The notes under the pieces: generated by a model
Databases searched by the model: none
The model's input: the letters and a program-made list of their open reading frames with translations, nothing else
Told to the model about the DNA's origin: nothing
Virus record (IMG/VR): IMGVR_UViG_2909303794_000005
Length of the DNA stretch: 37,179 bases
Source: a virus
Taxonomy: Duplodnaviria; Heunggongvirae; Uroviricota; Caudoviricetes
Direction: 5' to 3' (one strand)
Shown: positions 18,441-27,904 of the stretch, in pieces
How positions within the stretch are numbered: position 1 is the stretch's first letter
Layout of the letters: the number at the start of each line of letters is the position of its first letter
Position numbers and translations under genes: made by a program

Positions 18441-18472
18441 CAATAAAAAAGCCCCACCATTAAGGCAGGGCT
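18441..18472 (-). terminator. rho-independent terminator after putative tail tube gene
   Basis: Minus-strand AGCCCTGCC TTAA TGGTGGGGCT (G-U wobbles in RNA) followed by TTTTTATTG. Confidence 0.6.
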
Positions 18473-18603
18473 TATAATTAATCTTTAGCCTTGCGGCTTC
18501 GTTTAGCTGTGGCTTTCGCCGTAACAACCTCTAATTCTGGAATCACCACCGCTTCATGTTCCGGCTGTGGTTCCGGTTCTATTAAAGGAAGTTCTTCGTT
18601 AGT

Positions 18604-19080
18604 TCATCCGGCAGTATTGAAGATTTCCTGTTTCAGCGGTTTGCCGTCCACTGCAAAGGTAAACTCTTTAGTTACCACTTCTTCATCGCCACCGTTCATA
18701 GCAACTTTAGAAATAAAGCCGTTGAAAGCGGTGCGAATACCAGTCTGTTTTGCTGCGTCAACGTAATATTCTACTTTAATCTGAATACGAGTACCGTCTT
18801 CGGCAGCTTTGATCAGTTTTTCATGTACCGCATCGCCTGGGATGTAGTTAACGGTCAGAGTCAGATCAGGAACGTTCAGCTTCCCTACCAGTTTACGGTT
18901 ATACTGAGAAGAGAAGGATTTAACTTCTACAGTACCGCGTTCGATAGCAGTTTCCGGGAATCCGGCGCACTCTTTAATTTCTTCATAGCCCTCATGGTTG
19001 AGAGCGGTGTTAGTGGTATCGGCGTGATAGAACAGACTTACCAGACCACCAGTAAAAATATCTTTAAATTGCTGAGACAT
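18604..19080 (-). CDS. putative major tail tube protein
   Basis: RBS AAGGGG upstream; 158 aa; followed by a strong terminator and a conserved readthrough extension shared with the capsid gene (see findings). Assignment is by position and expression signals, not by a recognised motif. Confidence 0.45.
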   Translation of the reverse strand: MSQQFKDIFTGGLVSLFYHADTTNTALNHEGYEEIKECAGFPETAIERGTVEVKSFSSQYNRKLVGKLNVPDLTLTVNYIPGDAVHEKLIKAAEDGTRIQIKVEYYVDAAKQTGIRTAFNGFISKVAMNGGDEEVVTKEFTFAVDGKPLKQEIFNTAG

Positions 19081-19110
19081 AGAATTACCCCTTAATTAAA
19101 ATTGTTATTA

Positions 19111-19129
19111 CGGGGGAACTAGTCCCCCG
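19111..19129. terminator. GC-rich hairpin after tail fibre gene
   Basis: CGGGGGA ACTAG TCCCCCG inverted repeat between the fibre stop and the next RBS. Confidence 0.35.
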
Positions 19130-19136
19130 ACTTTTA

Positions 19137-22100
19137 TTATTTAGTTGCTTTGAGTTCGGCAATTTCTTTCTGTAATGCTTCGATCTGGGCTTTATATTTG
19201 GCGTCCATTTCCTGAATAGCTTTAATAATCAAGGCATTAACAGCGGAGTTAGAAATTGTTAAGATCTCTTCTGGCTTATCTGGATCTCCGATCTTTGAGG
19301 TTGTTACTGCTTCCGGCAATTCTTTTTCAAGATCCTGAGCAATAATACCAACTTCATGAGCAATGACAGTACGGTCGGTTAAAGACTTAACCTTATCGTA
19401 GGTGTACACAGTCAAGCGATTAATTTTATCGGTTGCATTCTCTTTATACTCTTCCTTGTTGATTTTAAGGCGAGCATCAGAACGAATATACACATCGTTA
19501 AAGTTACCATTGCGACCAGCTTGGAAATCACCGGAGGCGTTAAAGTCAAAGTTTGTGGTATGAATATGAAGACGTGCCATAGCATTAGTAATAACACCAC
19601 TAGGAACGTGTACACCCATTGCTGCGATGTGGTCTAAACCCCATTTGGTCGCTTTCCATACGTTATATGCGGAAGTTTGAGCATTAGGACAATCAACCAA
19701 TAAGCCAGCAGCGCGAGTTTTCCATTCTGACCATGCACCACCTTGTACTTCTCCGCGAATCAAACCACGGTCGCTACCGTTTGCATACCCACGTTCTAAG
19801 CGAATCATACCAGTCTGGAAAACATGGTCAAATTCTCCGCTGTTATAGTTTCGAATGCGCATTTGACCTGTGCTATCACCCCAGATAACACCACGGTTAG
19901 TACCATTAGCATCCTTAAACCAGAGTTCTTTATTACCATCTCTATACATCTGAATTTGGTTATTGGTACGCAAAACATTAGTAACCACCAAATCACCATT
20001 TATCTGAGCACGACCACCCGTTTCTAAACTACCAGCAACTCTGAATTGAATCGAACCGTTAGAATCACGCTGAGAATATAGATGATAGCTTGTTTCGTCA
20101 GCAAGTTCCCACACCTGAGCGCGAGAAGTTCCATTACCCCAATTCTTAATAAAAAATCTAGATGCAGATCCTTCGCTACGTTCCCAATATAATCGAGACC
20201 CTAAATGTGTTGTTGCATTTATTTCTACTTGACGATTTTCATTGTTGAGACGCATTAAATGATTACCAGCATCACTACCACCTAGTGTAACGTTACCATT
20301 GGCTAGGCTATAGATGAACGGCCTAAAGGTATTCCACGGACCCATAGTGTCGCCTGATTTTGTGCTCATCAGATAAACGTTACTACCGTCATTTCGCCAC
20401 CATGAACCATAGTTACCATATACAGTACGGAAGCCATCAGCATATAAAGAAATGAATTGACCGTTGGTATAGACTCGCTTCATGTTACCTGTCTGAAATT
20501 CGATCTGTCCGTCGATATGTTGACGAATAGAACTGCCACCTACATCGCTATACCATTCAAAAACGTTAGTATCAGCATTGGCATAACCGATCCAACCTTG
20601 ACGCGTAATATTTCCAGTCCGGTTATCTTGAAACGCAATGTGGTTAGATTGACCAGCAGGTCGGCGTAGTGTAATGACATTAGATCCGCCATTTAACAGC
20701 ATACGACCAGAAATAATATTACCCTTATGAGTTCCGGCAATTGAGCTACTAGATTCAATAGTCATAATTTCCTGAGCATCAGTGCTACCAGTAGCCAGAC
20801 GATAGCTGGCACCTTGAACAGTCTCATGCCAGATCATTTCATTATAGTTACTACGGAATTTACGAATATATTTTCGTCCAGTACCCCTATCATTACTCAA
20901 GTGAACAATATCATAACTGTTTTGTGTGTTATCGTCAAAACTCAACACACCACGTTTATTTTCAGTATTAAAAAGAGTTACGTTGCGACCACCGATAACA
21001 CCAACGGAAGGTTTAATTAACGTGGCTTCCGGCGTATCATAAACCGTCAAACTTACATAAACAGATTTCCCATATTCGACAATAACGTTATCGGTATAAC
21101 GCTGATATTTCACGTAGATATCATAGTTATCACCGGAAGTATTGACAGCAAATACCTCAAAATCTTTGTTTGTATTTCTACGGTATGCAATTACGTTAAG
21201 ACCTTTAGGTCTATCGTTACCACTACGCAGAAGAATTTCTACTACGTCAACCTGATCATATGCCGTAACGTTGTAACCATTACCACCATGAATACGGAAA
21301 AACACACTACGCCCGTTTTGTGGAATTGTTGCGGTTGCCAATTTGAAATATGCAGATACGTTTTCGCTAGAATTAGGAACAGACATAGTGACGTTTTTAA
21401 CAAACATCTTGTCAACTTCTGCTTTAGTGTATGCACCGATTTCGCCAGGAGTCGGCTTATCACCTTCGTGATACATCTTATAGCTAAAGTTCTTCTGTCC
21501 TTCTCTATCAAAACCATAGGTTTCAACACGAGATCCACCAGACGCATAACGGAAAGTAAATCCGCGACCGTGAGCTTTACCGGCAGAGTGAGGAACGTTA
21601 AGAGTTAGATCCATGAGTCCATCTTGACCATTGGTACGGAAAGCACCAAAGTAGTTAAGATCTCTCGCTGTCTGGTCTTCCAAATAGTTAGCTGTTTTGG
21701 TTAACAGATACCCGCCGTGCTTAGTGTTGGTATTCTTCTTGATGTAAAGAGCATCGTTACTACCTTCAATACCATCAATTCGACGGTTAGCGGCTGCGAT
21801 CGCTGAATCAGTATCAGTTTTGTTTTTGTCAACCTTTGCGTTAATAGCGGTATGGTTGCTATTCACCGTCCCTGTAAGGTTACTGATTTTAGTATCAGCA
21901 TCGCGTTTATTGTTCGCTACCGTAGTTTCAATGGCTGATTTGTTAGCTGCAACGGTACTCGTTAAGCTGGAGATCTTGGAATCAGCATCAGACTTGTTAG
22001 CTGTAACGGTTTTGGTCAGATTGCTAACATTGGTGTTAGTGGTATCAACACGGCTATTGATCGCGGTGTTATTGTCATTAACCGTCGTGGTTAAAGCTGC

Positions 22101-22577
22101 GATTTTATTGTCCGCATCTCGTTTATTATTTGCTACAGTAGTTTCTATAGCTGATTTGTTAGATGCAACTGTCCCCGTAAGGTTATTGATCTTAGTATCA
22201 GCATCGGTTTTATTTGCCGTGACTGTCTGGGTTAAGTTACTAACCGTGGTGTTAGTAGCATCAATGCGCTTATTGGTCGCTGTATCTTTCGTGGTAATAG
22301 TCTGATTCAGTTCAGCTTTAGCACTAGCCAGATTATTAGCGGCTTCTTGTTTGTTGGAAGCAATAACACGGTCAGTGCTAGTTTTGTTATTGTCTACTTT
22401 AGTGTTAAGTTCAGCGTGTTTTTCTGGAGAAACACTAATTTGGACTACGTTATTATTTTTGTCTTTGGTGTAAATCACATGATCCGCCAACTGTAAGGCG
22501 ATTTCACCCTGTGATAATTGTTCCGGCGTTGGCTTTTTACCAGCCGTCTGTGTGCGTTTAAATTGGATCGACTGCAT
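19137..22577 (-). CDS. tail fibre with C-terminal intramolecular chaperone (peptidase S74-like) domain
   Basis: RBS GTGAGGTGA upstream; 1146 aa; C-terminal SDARLK...LTDRTVIAHEVGIIAQDL...AVNALIIKAIQEMDAKY resembles the self-cleaving chaperone domain of T5 L-shaped fibre / endosialidases as recalled. Confidence 0.8.
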   Translation of the reverse strand: MQSIQFKRTQTAGKKPTPEQLSQGEIALQLADHVIYTKDKNNNVVQISVSPEKHAELNTKVDNNKTSTDRVIASNKQEAANNLASAKAELNQTITTKDTATNKRIDATNTTVSNLTQTVTANKTDADTKINNLTGTVASNKSAIETTVANNKRDADNKIAALTTTVNDNNTAINSRVDTTNTNVSNLTKTVTANKSDADSKISSLTSTVAANKSAIETTVANNKRDADTKISNLTGTVNSNHTAINAKVDKNKTDTDSAIAAANRRIDGIEGSNDALYIKKNTNTKHGGYLLTKTANYLEDQTARDLNYFGAFRTNGQDGLMDLTLNVPHSAGKAHGRGFTFRYASGGSRVETYGFDREGQKNFSYKMYHEGDKPTPGEIGAYTKAEVDKMFVKNVTMSVPNSSENVSAYFKLATATIPQNGRSVFFRIHGGNGYNVTAYDQVDVVEILLRSGNDRPKGLNVIAYRRNTNKDFEVFAVNTSGDNYDIYVKYQRYTDNVIVEYGKSVYVSLTVYDTPEATLIKPSVGVIGGRNVTLFNTENKRGVLSFDDNTQNSYDIVHLSNDRGTGRKYIRKFRSNYNEMIWHETVQGASYRLATGSTDAQEIMTIESSSSIAGTHKGNIISGRMLLNGGSNVITLRRPAGQSNHIAFQDNRTGNITRQGWIGYANADTNVFEWYSDVGGSSIRQHIDGQIEFQTGNMKRVYTNGQFISLYADGFRTVYGNYGSWWRNDGSNVYLMSTKSGDTMGPWNTFRPFIYSLANGNVTLGGSDAGNHLMRLNNENRQVEINATTHLGSRLYWERSEGSASRFFIKNWGNGTSRAQVWELADETSYHLYSQRDSNGSIQFRVAGSLETGGRAQINGDLVVTNVLRTNNQIQMYRDGNKELWFKDANGTNRGVIWGDSTGQMRIRNYNSGEFDHVFQTGMIRLERGYANGSDRGLIRGEVQGGAWSEWKTRAAGLLVDCPNAQTSAYNVWKATKWGLDHIAAMGVHVPSGVITNAMARLHIHTTNFDFNASGDFQAGRNGNFNDVYIRSDARLKINKEEYKENATDKINRLTVYTYDKVKSLTDRTVIAHEVGIIAQDLEKELPEAVTTSKIGDPDKPEEILTISNSAVNALIIKAIQEMDAKYKAQIEALQKEIAELKATK
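19140..19481 (-). other. intramolecular chaperone domain of tail fibre (predicted autoproteolytic release)
   Basis: Begins at the Ser of IR-SDARLK (residue about 1033); domain boundary inferred from the family motif. Confidence 0.55.
21831..22265 (-). repeat. in-frame tandem repeat in tail fibre N-terminal shaft
   Basis: Two near-identical 72-73 aa units (DATNTTVSNLTQTVTANKTDADTKINNLTGTV... and DTTNTNVSNLTKTVTANKSDADSKISSLTSTV...) with about 24 aa sub-periodicity. Confidence 0.6.
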
Positions 22578-22606
22578 CGAATCACCTCACTATAAAACAG
22601 GAATAA

Positions 22607-22624
22607 GGGAGGCGTTAACCTCCC
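22607..22624 (-). terminator. GC-rich hairpin after the 277 aa structural gene
   Basis: GGGAGG CGTTAA CCTCCC, followed on the minus strand by TTATTCCTGTTTTAT. Confidence 0.4.
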
Positions 22625-22654
22625 AACGTTCATGTTTTATTTAGGTAAGCAATC

Positions 22655-23488
22655 TTAATACTCACCGAAATCGATCCGGTCCGTCTTAGCCACTGCGCCA
22701 ATTTCGCTAGGTGTCGGTTTCTCATTGGTGGAATATACCTTGATCCATTCAGAACGACCGTTTTCCTGAATATTTCGGACACGTAAACGCGGTGCGCCAG
22801 AAGTATTACAGGTTAATTGCCATGCGCCATGCTCATTAGCTTGAAGATGAATTAACGATGTATCAGCACCATAAGGGTTAGTGCTAGCCGTTCCTTTGTA
22901 GGTTACGAAACGGTTTCCTGCTAATGCCTCGCTATCAATACCGCCCGTGAATGGATGTACACCAGCACCGATACCAAAATCACCCTGACGTAAGATACGG
23001 CCTTCGGTAGCAATACCCCTTGCCAAAATCCCGCCATCTGGTTCAAGTTTAAATTCCAGTGTTACAGCTTTGTTATCACTACCACGGGTTTTATGTGATG
23101 TGACGTAAGCATCATAGATGACATAGTAACCAGTGTTAGCAGCACTATAGCCAGAGTTCACAACATAGAACATACGGAAGCGTAAAGGTGTTTTATCCTC
23201 TACCGCTTTCATCAACATTGCTTGATGTTCATCGTCAAGAACACGGTTTAACGTGAGTGTTGTCGGTTCCAGTCTACGATAACCAGCAAGTTTCCCCGTA
23301 GCGTCCTGATCGTACTCTTCCAGAGTTTCTATCTCTGTGGATTCTGTTAGCGTAGGGAATGCTGCGACGTTCTCAATAGAACTAAAGCTAGGATCGAAAA
23401 AGTCGACCTGATTGTCTAGCTGGTTAGAGATTGAAATCTCTACATGGCTTCCAGTAAAAATATCTAAGTTATCATGCGTAATATTCAT
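22655..23488 (-). CDS. virion structural protein with fibre-like C-terminal motif
   Basis: 277 aa between connector genes and the tail fibre; C-terminal NEKPTPSEIGAVAKTD echoes KPTPGEIGAYTKAEVD inside the fibre. Confidence 0.4.
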   Translation of the reverse strand: MNITHDNLDIFTGSHVEISISNQLDNQVDFFDPSFSSIENVAAFPTLTESTEIETLEEYDQDATGKLAGYRRLEPTTLTLNRVLDDEHQAMLMKAVEDKTPLRFRMFYVVNSGYSAANTGYYVIYDAYVTSHKTRGSDNKAVTLEFKLEPDGGILARGIATEGRILRQGDFGIGAGVHPFTGGIDSEALAGNRFVTYKGTASTNPYGADTSLIHLQANEHGAWQLTCNTSGAPRLRVRNIQENGRSEWIKVYSTNEKPTPSEIGAVAKTDRIDFGEY

Positions 23489-23497
23489 TATTACCCC

Positions 23498-23920
23498 TTA
23501 AAAACGCGCTAGATAAGAAAATTTAAGGCTAAGTGTCCCAACGATACCCCCATCACTAGAATCATCGTCATAATCGGTATTAGAAGCTACTGGAGTGATA
23601 TCTGAAATAGAGAAGCCCAAATCTTTAAATCGTGGGTTATCCGGCTGAATCTGGATTATCTGGCAAATACCCTCATGGATTTTCGTTTCATGAATCTGAG
23701 AATATAATTGCATTTCGATAACGCATTCAGCTTGCATTGCATTACCACCACGGACCCTAGTGTAAGTCTCATTCATTCCGGTGATCCAACAAACCACGTC
23801 ATCACTAAAGCCTTGCTGAGTTTGTTCTACGTTTAAAGCCAGACCTAAATCTTGTTCGATAATATCTTGCAAGGCGCGTTTGATTTTCAGTCTAGGCATA
23901 TTATTAACGGTAGCGAGCAT
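23498..23920 (-). CDS. head-tail connector / neck protein candidate
   Basis: Start at ATG (MLATVNN...) with RBS AGGGGG 6 nt upstream; position downstream of capsid gene. Confidence 0.35.
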   Translation of the reverse strand: MLATVNNMPRLKIKRALQDIIEQDLGLALNVEQTQQGFSDDVVCWITGMNETYTRVRGGNAMQAECVIEMQLYSQIHETKIHEGICQIIQIQPDNPRFKDLGFSISDITPVASNTDYDDDSSDGGIVGTLSLKFSYLARF

Positions 23921-24194
23921 GTGTACCCCCTGCCAGAGTAATAAAGCAATCAGAAGTATTATCACCATTGCGCTTAACGTATTGAACTTTGAAACGCTGA
24001 TTTTCTACAATGACAATATCACCTTGCTTTAAGTCTCCCTCACGACAGAATAGAAATTCTGTTTCTGTCATTACCCCTTGTTCGTCGGTAGTAGTAATTT
24101 CATGGTAAGCACGAATTGATTTACCACCTTCCACCGAAAATACAGGAGCACTTCGGAACATTCTTGATAATTGTGATTCTGATAATTTGAACAT
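23904..24194 (-). CDS. head-tail connector / head completion protein candidate
   Basis: RBS AAGGGGG upstream; 96 aa directly after the capsid gene terminator. Confidence 0.35.
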   Translation of the reverse strand: MFKLSESQLSRMFRSAPVFSVEGGKSIRAYHEITTTDEQGVMTETEFLFCREGDLKQGDIVIVENQRFKVQYVKRNGDNTSDCFITLAGGTHARYR

Positions 24195-24221
24195 AGTTAC
24201 CCCCTTTATGGAGTATTTACA

Positions 24222-24251
24222 TACAAAAAAGCCCCACCGTTAGGCAGGGCT
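24222..24251 (-). terminator. rho-independent terminator after major capsid gene
   Basis: Minus-strand AGCCCTGCC TAAC GGTGGGGCT followed by TTTTTTG; same element as 18441-18472. Confidence 0.6.
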
Positions 24252-24343
24252 AATTATTATTTTGCTTTCGGTGGACGTCCCACCTTTTTAGCTGTGGCTT
24301 TCGCCGTAACTACCGGAATTTCTTCCGGCAATTCTTCGTTATT

Positions 24344-26347
24344 TCACTCTTCGCCAATTTTCAGAACTTTCAGAGCTTCCGGCTGTGCTACAACGTAGTC
24401 CAAATCTACAAAGATACGAGGCACTACCGCACCACGGTCACGGTATGTAGTTAGATCCATATCCAGTTCCAGACCGCCCCACTCACCGATGGTAATACCG
24501 GAGAAGTCACCCAGAACGATGTGGTCTGCCGGAATAACGCCAGAAGTAACTACTTCGTAACCAGCCAGTTTGCCGTTTTCGATGATATAACCGGAAACGC
24601 CGTTATCTTTCAGGGTAGATTCCAGTTCAGCAGCAGTTGCACCGCTCATCGCAAACTTGATCGCCTGAGCAGGAACGCCAGCGTCGGTCAGTGCTGCAAT
24701 TTCTTTCAGGAAGTCTTTGTAAGAGAAAGCAGCTTTCTTGGTAACGCGGTTAGCGTCTACCAGTTGCTTAACCAGACCAGCCGGACCACGGTCGTTAGCT
24801 TTATCAGACAGAATCAGTTGTTCCAGTTTGATGCGAACAGCTTTGTTAATGTGATCAGTGATCAGGGTAGCGATGCCCGGAACGGTTTTCAGCGACTGAC
24901 GGCTGATCGGGTTGCCACCAGCAAAAGTCTTAGGAGACAGTTTCACGTTTGCAAATTCAGCTTTGCCTTCCGGTGCAGCACCGTTTTCATCAACGAAGCC
25001 GAAAGCGTCAACGCTGGATTTAGTCATTTTTGGAATAGCGGTCGGGGAGTTCAAGCCACTGTAAACAGTCACACCCAGACGACCCAGAACAGATTCCGGC
25101 ATCAGCATTTCGATGTAGGATTCAGTCATCAGTTTTTCGTCAGTGATAGCGGTCAGGTCGGCTTTGGTGTTACCAGCAGAAGCAGCACGCATAGCAGCAG
25201 CCGGAACGAATACAGAGCCACCGCGAGCAGCACGACCACGCTGCATTGCAGCACCAGCAGCCATAGCGGAATATTCAGCTTCGTTAGCACCCAGAGCAGC
25301 ACCATCTACCAGAGAGCGAATTACGTTGTTCAGGTCAAAAGTTTTTTCCATTTTAGAGTCCTTAATTTGTTCGTTATTACGTTGAGCATTGACGAGATTA
25401 TTTAGTGCCTTAGTGCGGAATGCTTCCGGCGTCATGTCTTTAATTGCCAATGCGCGTGCTAATTCAGAGTCATCAATATTTAGTTCGCGTGCAATTTCGC
25501 GAATTTCTTCTTCGTCTTCTTCGGAACGTTCAGCCACTTCTTCGGTTTTTTCTTCTTCAACCGGAGCGGCTTCACGTTCTTCTTTTACTTCTTCTGTTTC
25601 CCGAACAGTTGAACTATCATCATCAACACTTTCAGGATGTTTAGCGTCTTTTCCGTCTTCGAGATTTTCATCTTCTTTATTCTCTTCAACTTGGCGCTCT
25701 TGAGTTTCTTCAACTTTCGGTTCTTTATTTTCTTCTACCGGAGTTTCTTCAACCTGAGCTGATTCTTGTTCTTCTTTGATTTCTTCGATTTGTTCTTTAG
25801 TCATATCGCGTTTAGCCCCCAAATTAACTGTGATAGTATTTAGAGAGCGATTTAAACCGACCGTATCGTCTGCGGGAACGGTGACAAATGAGAGTTCATA
25901 GGGTGCCCACTTAGTAACAATCAATTGTCCTTTGGTGTAGTCGATGTGATATTCTTTAATGTCATAACCGACAGAAATTTTTTCCATCGTACCTTCAATG
26001 ACTTTATTGCGAATATCATTAGCCAAAGTGCCATGCTTAGAGAATTTAACCAGAGCACGGCCTACGTTATCCGCATCGATTCGAGCGTTACAAACGACAC
26101 CAATGTGATTATCGAAAATATGATTGAACAGCAACGGAGCGTTATTATTCAGACGAGACAGATCAACCGCTTCCGGTGTATGTACCAGAATTTCATCTAA
26201 TACCACCATTTCTTGATTTTGCTCATCCCAGAATTGGCGCTGATAAGGCTGTTCACTGGAGAAAGCAATTTCAAATTCGTATTGATCGTTATGCCCTTCG
26301 TTAATAACTCCACCGTAACCGTTAAGATCGCGGCGAAATTTAAGCAT
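24344..26347 (-). CDS. prohead protease - acidic scaffold-like linker - major capsid protein fusion (HK97 fold)
   Basis: N-terminal about 170 aa with HK97-type protease motif ELSFVTVPADD; Glu-rich middle region; C-terminal about 350 aa with HK97-like capsid features. RBS AAAGGTGA upstream. Confidence 0.8.
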   Translation of the reverse strand: MLKFRRDLNGYGGVINEGHNDQYEFEIAFSSEQPYQRQFWDEQNQEMVVLDEILVHTPEAVDLSRLNNNAPLLFNHIFDNHIGVVCNARIDADNVGRALVKFSKHGTLANDIRNKVIEGTMEKISVGYDIKEYHIDYTKGQLIVTKWAPYELSFVTVPADDTVGLNRSLNTITVNLGAKRDMTKEQIEEIKEEQESAQVEETPVEENKEPKVEETQERQVEENKEDENLEDGKDAKHPESVDDDSSTVRETEEVKEEREAAPVEEEKTEEVAERSEEDEEEIREIARELNIDDSELARALAIKDMTPEAFRTKALNNLVNAQRNNEQIKDSKMEKTFDLNNVIRSLVDGAALGANEAEYSAMAAGAAMQRGRAARGGSVFVPAAAMRAASAGNTKADLTAITDEKLMTESYIEMLMPESVLGRLGVTVYSGLNSPTAIPKMTKSSVDAFGFVDENGAAPEGKAEFANVKLSPKTFAGGNPISRQSLKTVPGIATLITDHINKAVRIKLEQLILSDKANDRGPAGLVKQLVDANRVTKKAAFSYKDFLKEIAALTDAGVPAQAIKFAMSGATAAELESTLKDNGVSGYIIENGKLAGYEVVTSGVIPADHIVLGDFSGITIGEWGGLELDMDLTTYRDRGAVVPRIFVDLDYVVAQPEALKVLKIGEE

Positions 26348-26366
26348 TTAATCACCTTTAATTAAT

Positions 26367-26383
26367 TGGGGGCATTGCGCCCC
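26367..26383 (-). terminator. GC-rich hairpin after portal gene
   Basis: GGGGGC ATTGC GCCCCC between portal stop and capsid RBS. Confidence 0.4.
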
Positions 26384-26392
26384 CGTTGGTTA

Positions 26393-27904
26393 TTAGGGAT
26401 CGGCTGGGGAATTTTTTTCTTCATCCTCGCCATTAACGATAATATTTAGTGCGCTCTTTTCGGCTTGAATCTCTGAGAATACTTTTTCAGGATCATCACC
26501 ACGTTCTAATATAACGGCAGTACGTGATTTAAGTCCGTTATCAATTAAAGCAATCTCGGCGCTTACGTCTTTAAATGGATCGACGGATTCAAAACGCGGA
26601 CGAATAATAGTAGTGTTATCGATAATATGCGGGATTGCAGTAATACGAATCGGAACAATACCACGCGCGGAATAATGGCGTAGATATGCTTCGAAAATGG
26701 GCGACACCACTGTTTCAATCAATTTGTTTTGCAGTGCTTTAACGCGGTGTCGTTGCATTAAATCACCGAATCTACTGGCGCTGTAGTTTATTTGTGAACA
26801 ATCTCCTGTTAAGCCCTGTTTGAACACGCCTAAGCCCATTGATACGCTAGTAAACATCGCATCATTGAAGGAATTGAAATCATCGCCTGATTGAGTAGCT
26901 TGGATTGATTTAATCGTTGCCCCTTCCGGTAATTCCTGAATAGTACCAGGTGCAAAATCCTGTACTACTTCCGGCGCTTGATATTGTTCATCCTCTTCAC
27001 CAGTATCAAAATCGTCACCAGAATCTTTCGGACGTTCGATAAAGCCCATAGAACTAGCCGCAATACGTTTCTGGATAATTGCAGTTTCGCGGAATGCGTC
27101 TTGATGTGCGATATCCTTGATCACTGGCAGGAAGTCAGTCACACCACGCAGGGATTCGGCTGTAAGTGGTTGATAATAATGGCATACTTGCGATGCATCT
27201 ACGCGATAGTTATCACCTGTGTAAGTCTGAGTCAGTAGGTTGATTTTACGAAACCAGTATGCTACTGGCTTCATTGTTTCTACGTCATACTCGATCCCCT
27301 GATAGATAGCACGTTCTTTGCTTACTTCACGGTTTAGCGACCAGTCGCACTTATCAGCAGACAGGATAGAAACATTTAACTCATTGTTTTCTTTGGTTAA
27401 AACGATGAAGCACTCACCACCCATAACGCGCTCACGTTCAGCCATTACCAGCAGTTCACGGAAGTTAAAGCGACCGTTACGAGAGAAGCGTTTAGCATTC
27501 TGCGCCCACTTCCAGAAAGCATTCTCGATCTGCTTATTCAGTGCGCTATCAAGTTTGCCATTTGGTTTAACAACTGACGGCTTCGGATCTAGGCCACCAC
27601 CGACCACCATATCGGTGATGTATTGCGTGTAGCGACTGCCTACGGAAGTGTTTAAGGCCAGAGTACGACCCTGATCATAAAGGCGCTTACCGTTCGATTT
27701 GAGAGCCTTATTGAAGGTTCCTGTAATGGTGTCTTGTTGAAGCGATCCATCAATGCGATCACCCACCAGACCTAAACTACGCTTAGACAAATCTTTCTGG
27801 TATTTTTCTATAGATTTGTCGATGAAAATTTTTGGTTGTTGCTGGCGGTGATTAGTTTTAACTGGAGTTTCTACCGCCTTTTTGCGTCGAAAAAGATTAA
27901 ACAT
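26393..27904 (-). CDS. portal protein (lambda gpB-type)
   Basis: 503 aa immediately downstream of terminase and upstream of protease/capsid; overall resemblance to lambda-family portal proteins. Confidence 0.8.
   Translation of the reverse strand: MFNLFRRKKAVETPVKTNHRQQQPKIFIDKSIEKYQKDLSKRSLGLVGDRIDGSLQQDTITGTFNKALKSNGKRLYDQGRTLALNTSVGSRYTQYITDMVVGGGLDPKPSVVKPNGKLDSALNKQIENAFWKWAQNAKRFSRNGRFNFRELLVMAERERVMGGECFIVLTKENNELNVSILSADKCDWSLNREVSKERAIYQGIEYDVETMKPVAYWFRKINLLTQTYTGDNYRVDASQVCHYYQPLTAESLRGVTDFLPVIKDIAHQDAFRETAIIQKRIAASSMGFIERPKDSGDDFDTGEEDEQYQAPEVVQDFAPGTIQELPEGATIKSIQATQSGDDFNSFNDAMFTSVSMGLGVFKQGLTGDCSQINYSASRFGDLMQRHRVKALQNKLIETVVSPIFEAYLRHYSARGIVPIRITAIPHIIDNTTIIRPRFESVDPFKDVSAEIALIDNGLKSRTAVILERGDDPEKVFSEIQAEKSALNIIVNGEDEEKNSPADP

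Follow-up and report, generated by a model that had tools for sequence, protein, structure and literature searches.

Does translation of phage structural genes continue past a UGA stop codon into a short, conserved reading frame behind it? The question is raised by IMG/VR virus record IMGVR_UViG_2909303794_000005, a stretch of 37,179 nucleotides (nt) from a tailed phage (Caudoviricetes), referred to here in its full length as the window, in which the fused prohead protease-scaffold-major capsid gene and the gene of the major tail tube protein both end in UGA followed by an A and are both continued by an in-frame, stop-free extension. The window represents an Escherichia coli prophage and is 100% identical to strain 14EC007 (NZ_CP024131.1). 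Overall, the comparison of related genomes points to programmed UGA readthrough, which would give minor extended capsid and tube subunits, as the best explanation of this arrangement, and we put its probability at roughly 65%.

All relevant genes of the window are encoded on the minus strand (Table 1). We confirmed the layout that a preliminary description of this DNA had given for the capsid gene, namely an open reading frame (ORF) ending in TGA-A, 28 open codons, TAA TAA and a terminator (24346-24230), the last of which begins 2 nt past the second TAA. A homologous extension had also been proposed behind the tube-gene UGA at 18604; it was found to comprise 41 codons and to share with the capsid extension the exact 24-mer GTTACGGCGAAAGCCACAGCTAAA, which occurs twice in the window compared to 0 occurrences expected by chance. 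Both extensions open with TGA AMT AAC GAA GAA. The peptides predicted to span the stop are ...KIGEE-X-NNEELPEEIPVVTAK for the capsid and ...NTAG-X-TNEELPL... for the tube (X is the UGA position), and the capsid extension runs from an acidic start (NNEELPEE) through a conserved VTAKATAK to a basic tip (KVGRPPKAK). The two terminators were the top-scoring minus-strand sites in 17000-27000, with hairpins of -17.3 and -17.6 kcal/mol. The match of the tube protein to PHROG 158 covers positions 15-157 only of a 376-position profile, other members of the family being longer C-terminally; Pfam families of lambda-like tail tube proteins matched it just under threshold, and a PDB sequence search with it gave no match. 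The capsid protein matches PDB entry 8gta, a match from which the orientation of the C-terminus is not derivable.

Table 1 Positions of the two genes, their candidate leaky stops, extensions, RNA structures and terminators in the window
Feature	Position	Strand	Evidence
Fused prohead protease-scaffold-major capsid gene, 667 codons	24347..26347	-	Pfam Peptidase_S78 (residues 40-162) and Phage_capsid (residues 409-664); PHROG 617 major head protein
Candidate leaky stop of the capsid gene: UGA (24346-24344) and next base A (24343)	24343..24346	-	TGA-A invariant in 37/37 distinct versions, flanking codons variable
In-frame capsid extension, 28 codons, NNEELPEEIPVVTAKATAKKVGRPPKAK	24260..24343	-	Open in frame in all relatives; codon-frame log-likelihood ratio 0.49/codon
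RNA hairpin 1: 11-bp stem (AAUUGCCGGAA / UUCCGGUAGUU), GAAA loop, 10 nt after UGA	24308..24333	-	Fold z = -3.7
Mini-hairpin GGC-GAAA-GCC in the conserved 24-mer (24287-24310)	24296..24305	-	3 pairs form in 100% of cells
Hairpin 3, GGUGG-GACGU-CCACC, in the codons of the basic tip	24270..24284	-	GRPPKAK-type alleles only
Tandem stops TAA TAA ending the capsid extension	24254..24259	-	TAA TAA or TGA TAA in all capsid copies
Intrinsic terminator after the capsid gene: 9-bp G+C-rich stem, UAAC loop, U-run	24224..24251 (hairpin 24251-24230)	-	Fold and terminator scan
Major tail tube protein gene, 158 codons	18607..19080	-	PHROG 158 major tail protein, E 8e-21; PGAP: 'phage tail tube protein'
Candidate leaky stop of the tube gene: UGA (18606-18604) and next base A (18603)	18603..18606	-	TGA-A as in capsid copies
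In-frame tube extension, 41 codons, TNEELPLIEPEPQPEHEAVVIPELEVVTAKATAKRSRKAKD, then TAA (18480-18478)	18481..18603	-	Variants of 36, 39, 40 and 41 codons, all in frame
Structured RNA domain of the tube extension, from 10 nt after UGA to just before ACGGCGAAAGCC	18523..18593	-	Fold z = -1.9
Intrinsic terminator after the tube gene, near-identical to the capsid one	18443..18473 (stem 18473-18449)	-	Fold and terminator scan

Relatives of the cassette were collected in two ways. A scan of IMG/VR for the exact 24-mer returned only copies standing in frame behind one stop, but this set is biased by the search mode. The second collection was made by similarity of the capsid protein and yielded 31 close relatives, whose capsid proteins are 82-100% identical in their last 120 residues; all 31 carried TGA-A, an in-frame extension of 28, 42, 43, 44 or 45 codons, TAA TAA and the terminator. 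The same TGA-A with an in-frame extension was present in six metagenome contigs found via a degenerate pattern inside the capsid gene, and the same in-frame cassette in six E. coli genome matches from among the most divergent ones. It was also present in frame behind a capsid allele 38% identical to that of the window (prophages of the strains HeN100 and RMDEC332 and five IMG/VR contigs, four of them obtained by a scan and the fifth being L009), a set that includes a 33-codon deletion variant. In total, 88 occurrences representing 37 distinct nucleotide versions were obtained, in which the extension always followed TGA-A immediately and continued the frame without a stop, with 0 exceptions; four further loci agreed in having TGA-A and an in-frame, stop-free extension. 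Relatives with an out-of-frame or interrupted extension, named in the preliminary description as the observation that would speak against readthrough, were looked for and found in 0 of these 37 versions. Capsid extensions came in lengths of 28, 33, 42, 43, 44 and 45 codons and tube extensions in the four lengths of Table 1. The capsid region was carried by 55 of 5426 complete E. coli genomes (~1%) at ~89-97% identity, and no annotated feature lay under the extension in any E. coli genome among the matches listed. A scan of genome contigs with a capsid alignment gave no relatives.

The stop codon itself followed the presence of the extension. The codon before TGA was variable (GAA, GAG, GAC, GGA, GCT, TCT or GGT), as were the +1 and +2 codons, while TGA-A was constant. 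All lineages without the extension ended in TAA, namely two other tube alleles, a Salmonella relative, a JGI contig and DCP80, the nearest named phage, whose capsid and tube proteins are ~45% identical to those of the window. In the three distant relatives among them (the Salmonella prophage at 53-61% identity, the JGI contig and DCP80), the TAA was followed directly by a terminator. At least three tube alleles occurred within otherwise related prophages (L025, L026, L030 and others; L058), of which only the window type carried the extension; the other tube alleles, ~59% (12 loci) and 73% identical, ended in TAA-T directly before a different terminator. Since all extended copies had TGA-A and all lineages without extension had TAA, the pairing is strict.

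The extension also had the signature of a coding sequence. Frame 0 was free of stops, and each version had one or more stops in frames +1 and +2, two to six in most cases. Length differences between versions were all whole codons (48, 27, 15, 9, 6 and 3 nt), and at least 100 parsimony steps at variable sites produced 0 in-frame stops compared to 3.4 expected (P = 0.02). With a codon-frame score trained on the structural genes of the window, frame 0 of the extension reached 0.43-0.61 per codon, similar to genuine in-frame windows (0.50 +/- 0.16), and frames 1 and 2 were negative, like off-frame sequence. No start codon was conserved inside the extension (TTG is changed to TCG in L050 and L065). 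The composition was retained, with an acidic, Glu/Pro-rich spacer leading to the VTAKATAK core and from there to a Lys/Arg-rich tip, of which the versions KKVGRPPKAK, KKQRKTKE, KKERKTKAK, KRSRKAKD, KRGRKAKN and KRGRKPKE were seen; exchanges of Lys to Arg in the tip (e.g. AAG to CGA) require several base changes, the charge thus being kept through different sequences. The AT-hook-like GRP motif noted in the preliminary description is present in the capsid copy of the window but did not hold up as a conserved element: it scored 14.2 bits against PF02178 (cut-off 17.4, E 0.039) and is replaced by QRKTKE, ERKTKAK, RSRKAKD or RGRKPKE in other alleles.

Other routes to an extended or separate product were considered and rejected. 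Independent initiation was dismissed on the grounds that no start is conserved and that the ATGA overlap of many variants opens only a 7-codon out-of-frame ORF. A suppressor tRNA or an altered genetic code was likewise dismissed, with 0 tRNA genes in the window and TAA as the stop of 32 of its 42 ORFs.

The bases of the extension also contain an RNA fold, which had been overlooked in the preliminary description. In every variant the closing helix begins at extension nt 11, i.e. after a 10-nt spacer behind the UGA, which places a conserved RNA structure at a fixed short distance 3' of the candidate recoding site. Its 3' arm consists of the 9 nt directly before ACGGCGAAAGCC, which itself forms the GGC-GAAA-GCC mini-hairpin. 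The helix arms differed by variant class with complementarity kept (AAUUGCCGG / CCGGUAGUU; AACCWUCUG / CAGACGGUU; AACUUC / GAAGUU; AACAACC / GGUUGUU), and the L050 lineage showed a compensatory change from U-A to C-G. When the arms alone were aligned, 91% of cells were paired, compared to 22-47% when the partner was slid. Six of the nine closing-helix pairs changed on both sides, and covariation was higher than in 500 of 500 shuffles, a comparison to be read with the caveat that the structure was derived from the same sequences and that these form only ~4-5 independent classes. When the long capsid variants were compared, variation affected 1 of the 44 paired columns and 25 of the 53 unpaired ones (Fisher P = 1.5e-7). 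The folds were more stable than shuffled sequences, with z values of -3.7 to -3.9 for the capsid copies and a weaker value of -1.9 for the tube copy of the window, whose closing helix has two mismatches because this copy is a recombinant of two variant classes.

Further details concern single hairpins. Hairpin 3 is changed from GGUGG/CCACC to GGCGG/CCGCC in L028 and L029; a terminator-like site reported by the scan on the plus strand at 24270-24284 is the reverse complement of this hairpin and not a separate feature. In the capsid extension of L063 and L072, a deletion of 27 nt, lying between two GAAGAA repeats that are in phase, takes out precisely the second inner hairpin; the frame is maintained, and neither the outer helix nor the first hairpin is affected. 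A scan of 18300-24600 against Rfam at a permissive threshold gave chance-level matches only.

Because the frame of the upstream gene stays open with gene-like codons and no start of its own, behind a conserved weak stop and ahead of a tandem strong stop, and overlaps with a conserved 3' structure, the cassette has the classical anatomy of a recoding site. Similar to the A1-type readthrough of phage Q-beta, an in-frame ORF lies behind a single stop, the stop and its context are conserved, and the ORF evolves in a coding-like manner; UGA-A is also the stop context of the Q-beta coat gene. Comparative genomics (37/37 versions in frame, gene-like codons, TAA where the extension is lacking) thus supports the candidate readthrough that had been proposed from the window alone. 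In the mechanism we propose, most ribosomes would terminate at the UGA-A of the capsid or tube gene, and a small fraction would read the UGA as a sense codon, with Trp-tRNA(Trp) as the most likely decoder, and translate a further 28-45 codons up to the strong tandem stop just ahead of the terminator. The resulting minor subunits would gain a tail made of the acidic Glu/Pro-rich spacer and the Lys/Arg-rich tip. We infer that a few per cent of the capsid and tube subunits would carry it, because UGA readthrough in E. coli is a competition of Trp-tRNA(Trp) with release factors RF2/RF3 (PMC10570021) and A1 of Q-beta is made by ~5% UGA readthrough (PMC7026636).

The tails would probably be exposed on the virion surface, judging from related systems (HK97-fold capsids and lambda-like tube proteins), since the C-termini of the P22 coat protein and of lambda-like tube proteins point outward and relatives within the tube family are longer C-terminally. 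In lambda-like tube proteins, it is the C-terminal domains that lie on the outside of the tube. For P22, the coat C-terminus has been described as facing the exterior (PMC9962691). Such a tail could form a flexible appendage on the surface, present in low copy number, that might bind polyanions such as lipopolysaccharide (LPS), capsule or mucin, although adhesion to polyanionic surfaces is a guess at its function. The RNA fold, in turn, may stimulate readthrough or may protect a rarely translated A-rich stretch from RNases and decay. A more specific proposal, that the cassette is a portable two-part signal in which UGA-A, the 10-nt spacer and a covarying hairpin that raises readthrough together serve to present one and the same polybasic tip in low number on head and tail, for attachment to anionic surfaces (LPS, capsule, gut mucin), is tentative and, taken as a whole, on the unlikely side.

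Several observations weigh against readthrough and have to be set beside this evidence. The tube extension is dispensable, as there are 12 related prophages whose tube allele lacks it, and the variants represent ~4-5 independent sequence classes, so that the counts overstate independence. No relative was found in which a sense codon replaces the stop or the extension is constitutively fused: when the capsid C-terminus joined by Trp to the extension was used as a query against 5.8 billion proteins, all matches stopped at the UGA (91% coverage), and the sole match of a profile search with the extension peptides was a 33-amino-acid miscalled ORF inside the extension. Constraint at the amino-acid level is weak, with a crude ratio of nonsynonymous to synonymous substitution rates (dN/dS) of 0.74 in the capsid extension and 0.44 in the tube extension, and the variable sites of the extension lack a third-position bias. 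We did not find dN/dS convincing as proof of selection on the protein, and both RNA pairing and mosaicism confound the values. For several changes that look synonymous, RNA pairing is an equally good explanation. The change between CTT CCT and TTG CCG (Leu-Pro) from which the preliminary description had argued for protein-level selection is a case in point: the difference is real, but the bases lie in the 5' helix arm and covary with the 3' arm, and because pairing explains the change equally well it is not clean evidence for such selection. Finally, structures that act mechanically on bacterial ribosomes usually stand behind a spacer of 5-9 nt, and the spacer here is 10 nt.

The main rival to readthrough takes the cassette as an untranslated, structured 3' untranslated region (3'UTR) with a role in stabilising or processing the two late mRNAs of highest abundance, its open frame being an accident or a fading coding relic. 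The near-invariant stems, the covarying closing helix and the stability of the capsid folds would all suit such an element, as would the weak amino-acid constraint and the dispensable tube copy. However, it leaves unexplained why insertions and deletions comprise whole codons, why a single frame is free of stops and has gene-like codon usage in phase with the upstream gene, why TGA-A goes with the extension and TAA with its absence, and why a tandem stop and the charge pattern are retained, and we consider it quite unlikely. An alternative explanation accepts readthrough and regards the peptide as irrelevant: ribosomes halting 5-8 nt before the terminator would mask its 5' arm, and the leak rate would set transcription of the downstream head-completion and tail genes. 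Such coupling could account for an open frame that is kept despite weak constraint on its amino acids and for an extension stop that is always 5-8 nt from the terminator stem. A similarly short gap also occurs without any extension (6 nt, tube gene of DCP80), L056 has a different terminator sequence yet keeps the extension, and neither the acidic-then-basic pattern nor the Lys/Arg exchanges are explained; we hold this alternative to be distinctly improbable.

The cassette and its terminator could also be released as a 3'UTR-derived, Hfq-type small RNA (sRNA) with the conserved 24-mer as its seed, which could coexist with readthrough. The order of hairpins, A-rich single-stranded conserved core and terminator with U-tail resembles that of 3'UTR-derived sRNAs, and the two copies share the exact 24-mer and a near-identical terminator. 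A screen of the window, and of the window only, found no complementary target of at least 9 nt on a transcribed strand, however, and no Rfam family matched; the putative seed varies (ACA GCT is changed to GTT, GCA or CCA), the terminator is swapped in L056, and the evidence from the reading frame is left unexplained; we rate an sRNA slightly lower still than terminator masking. A last possibility is that UGA is decoded as selenocysteine, with the hairpin ~10 nt downstream as a selenocysteine insertion sequence (SECIS). The resemblance lies in the spacing, which is ~11 nt after UGA in bacterial SECIS elements. A SECIS is a stem-loop immediately downstream of the UGA (PMC7026636). In the cassette, the apical loops differ entirely between variants: some have a GAAA tetraloop and others a multi-branched domain, and the tube copies have loops of yet other kinds. 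No single loop for SelB to bind is thus conserved, and the probability of selenocysteine is practically negligible.

Some observations on relatives and on the genomic setting are added here. In Salmonella enterica GCA_013119815.1 (L054, 1080-1135 and 7390-7435), the capsid and tube proteins have short constitutive basic C-termini before TAA (...KAPAGRSK and ...APGVAARK), which may represent the ancestral state of the basic tip and which hint that such a tip is useful in this phage group. In DCP80 (L001, 7786-7882), a hairpin follows the capsid TAA, as does an ORF of 28 codons that lies in the -1 frame and has a basic end (...APVKKSKSASG), the -1 frame being open across the last capsid codons (GAA AAG); in this single genome, it may be an analogous extension of the frameshift type. 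DCP80 (PQ671644.1) is filed as Straboviridae; Tevenvirinae; Gaprivervirus, a taxonomy line that looks doubtful given that the terminase of the phage is of the GpA type and its protease-capsid protein is a fused, HK97-type one that is related to that of this prophage. Deposited phages had no DNA-level match to the window except for a tail-fibre segment. The prophage is of a lambda-like siphovirus type with a T4-like long tail fibre module on the minus strand (19137-22577 and 17923-18429), in which the DNA of 19206-21710, inside a gene of 1146 amino acids, shares 77-93% identity with gp37 from RB49-like (Krischvirus) phages. The prophage additionally encodes a homologue of the gp38 adhesin. The tube gene with its extension and terminator is placed between the gp37-like and gp38-like genes, an unusual order. 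Upstream of the fibre gene, 22655-23488 (minus strand) encodes a 277-amino-acid protein, the first 154 residues of which match PHROG 158 (major tail protein) and which has an extra C-terminal part, making it a second tube-like paralogue.

Full-text literature searches returned no report of readthrough in a capsid or tail gene of a tailed phage. The capsid and tail extensions of tailed phages given in one review are derived from frameshifting only, with no readthrough case (PMC5009743), and the phage and bacterial readthrough cases given in another are Q-beta and SacB (PMC7026636). According to these two sources and our searches, capsid and tail extensions by recoding are thus known only from frameshifting, and programmed readthrough in phages essentially only from Q-beta-like RNA phages. 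If the proposed mechanism is true, the cassette would bring readthrough to a tailed double-stranded DNA phage, in two structural proteins at once and with a conserved RNA structure beside the stop. It would provide a natural model, in E. coli, in which to study the influence of stop context and RNA structure on the leakiness of UGA; the lineage occurs in ~1% of complete E. coli genomes (54 of 5426), so that strains are easy to obtain. It would also mean that automatic annotation misses such extended products, and would suggest a natural low-copy display strategy. Should the hairpin actively enhance readthrough, the cassette would be the first signal in bacteria comparable to those with which eukaryotic viruses stimulate readthrough by RNA structure.

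The closest known system is the coat/A1 pair of Q-beta (Allolevivirus), in which UGA-A ends the coat gene. A minor C-terminally extended capsid subunit is made there by readthrough (PMC7026636), as is predicted here. Q-beta is, however, a single-stranded RNA phage whose extension is a folded domain of ~196 amino acids that is needed for infectivity, whereas the present cassette belongs to a double-stranded DNA tailed prophage, adds a low-complexity tail of 28-45 amino acids to two structural proteins, is accompanied on the 3' side by an RNA fold that is conserved and, in the case of the tube at least, can be dispensed with. With 3'UTR-derived Hfq-dependent sRNAs it shares a structured region and a conserved core before an intrinsic terminator at the mRNA 3' end; unlike in these, the reading frame is kept, the putative seed varies, and no target in the window and no Rfam match were found. 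The UGA with a nearby hairpin is reminiscent of a bacterial SECIS, from which it differs in its variable hairpin sequence and in lacking a conserved apical loop for SelB. Similar to the readthrough signals of eukaryotic viruses (the pseudoknot of murine leukaemia virus, MuLV, and extended stem-loops), UGA is followed after a short spacer by a stable conserved structure inside the coding sequence of the extension (PMC7026636). Those signals act on eukaryotic ribosomes and eRF1, whereas the 10-nt spacer of the cassette is somewhat long for a bacterial ribosome and a stimulatory role of its structure is hypothetical. The frameshift systems of T7/T3 gene 10A/10B, Lactobacillus phage A2 and the cps and tsh genes of Listeria phages A118, A500 and PSA (PMC5009743) resemble the proposed mechanism in that a single gene yields a main product together with a longer, minor one. 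They use a -1 or +1 shift, for which 3' structures or stop codons serve as stimulators (PMC5009743), and often add Ig-like domains, whereas here a short charged tail would be added in the zero frame behind the stop. Recoding concerns the capsid gene as well as the tail-shaft gene in the phages of Listeria (PMC5009743), as we propose here for the capsid and the tube.

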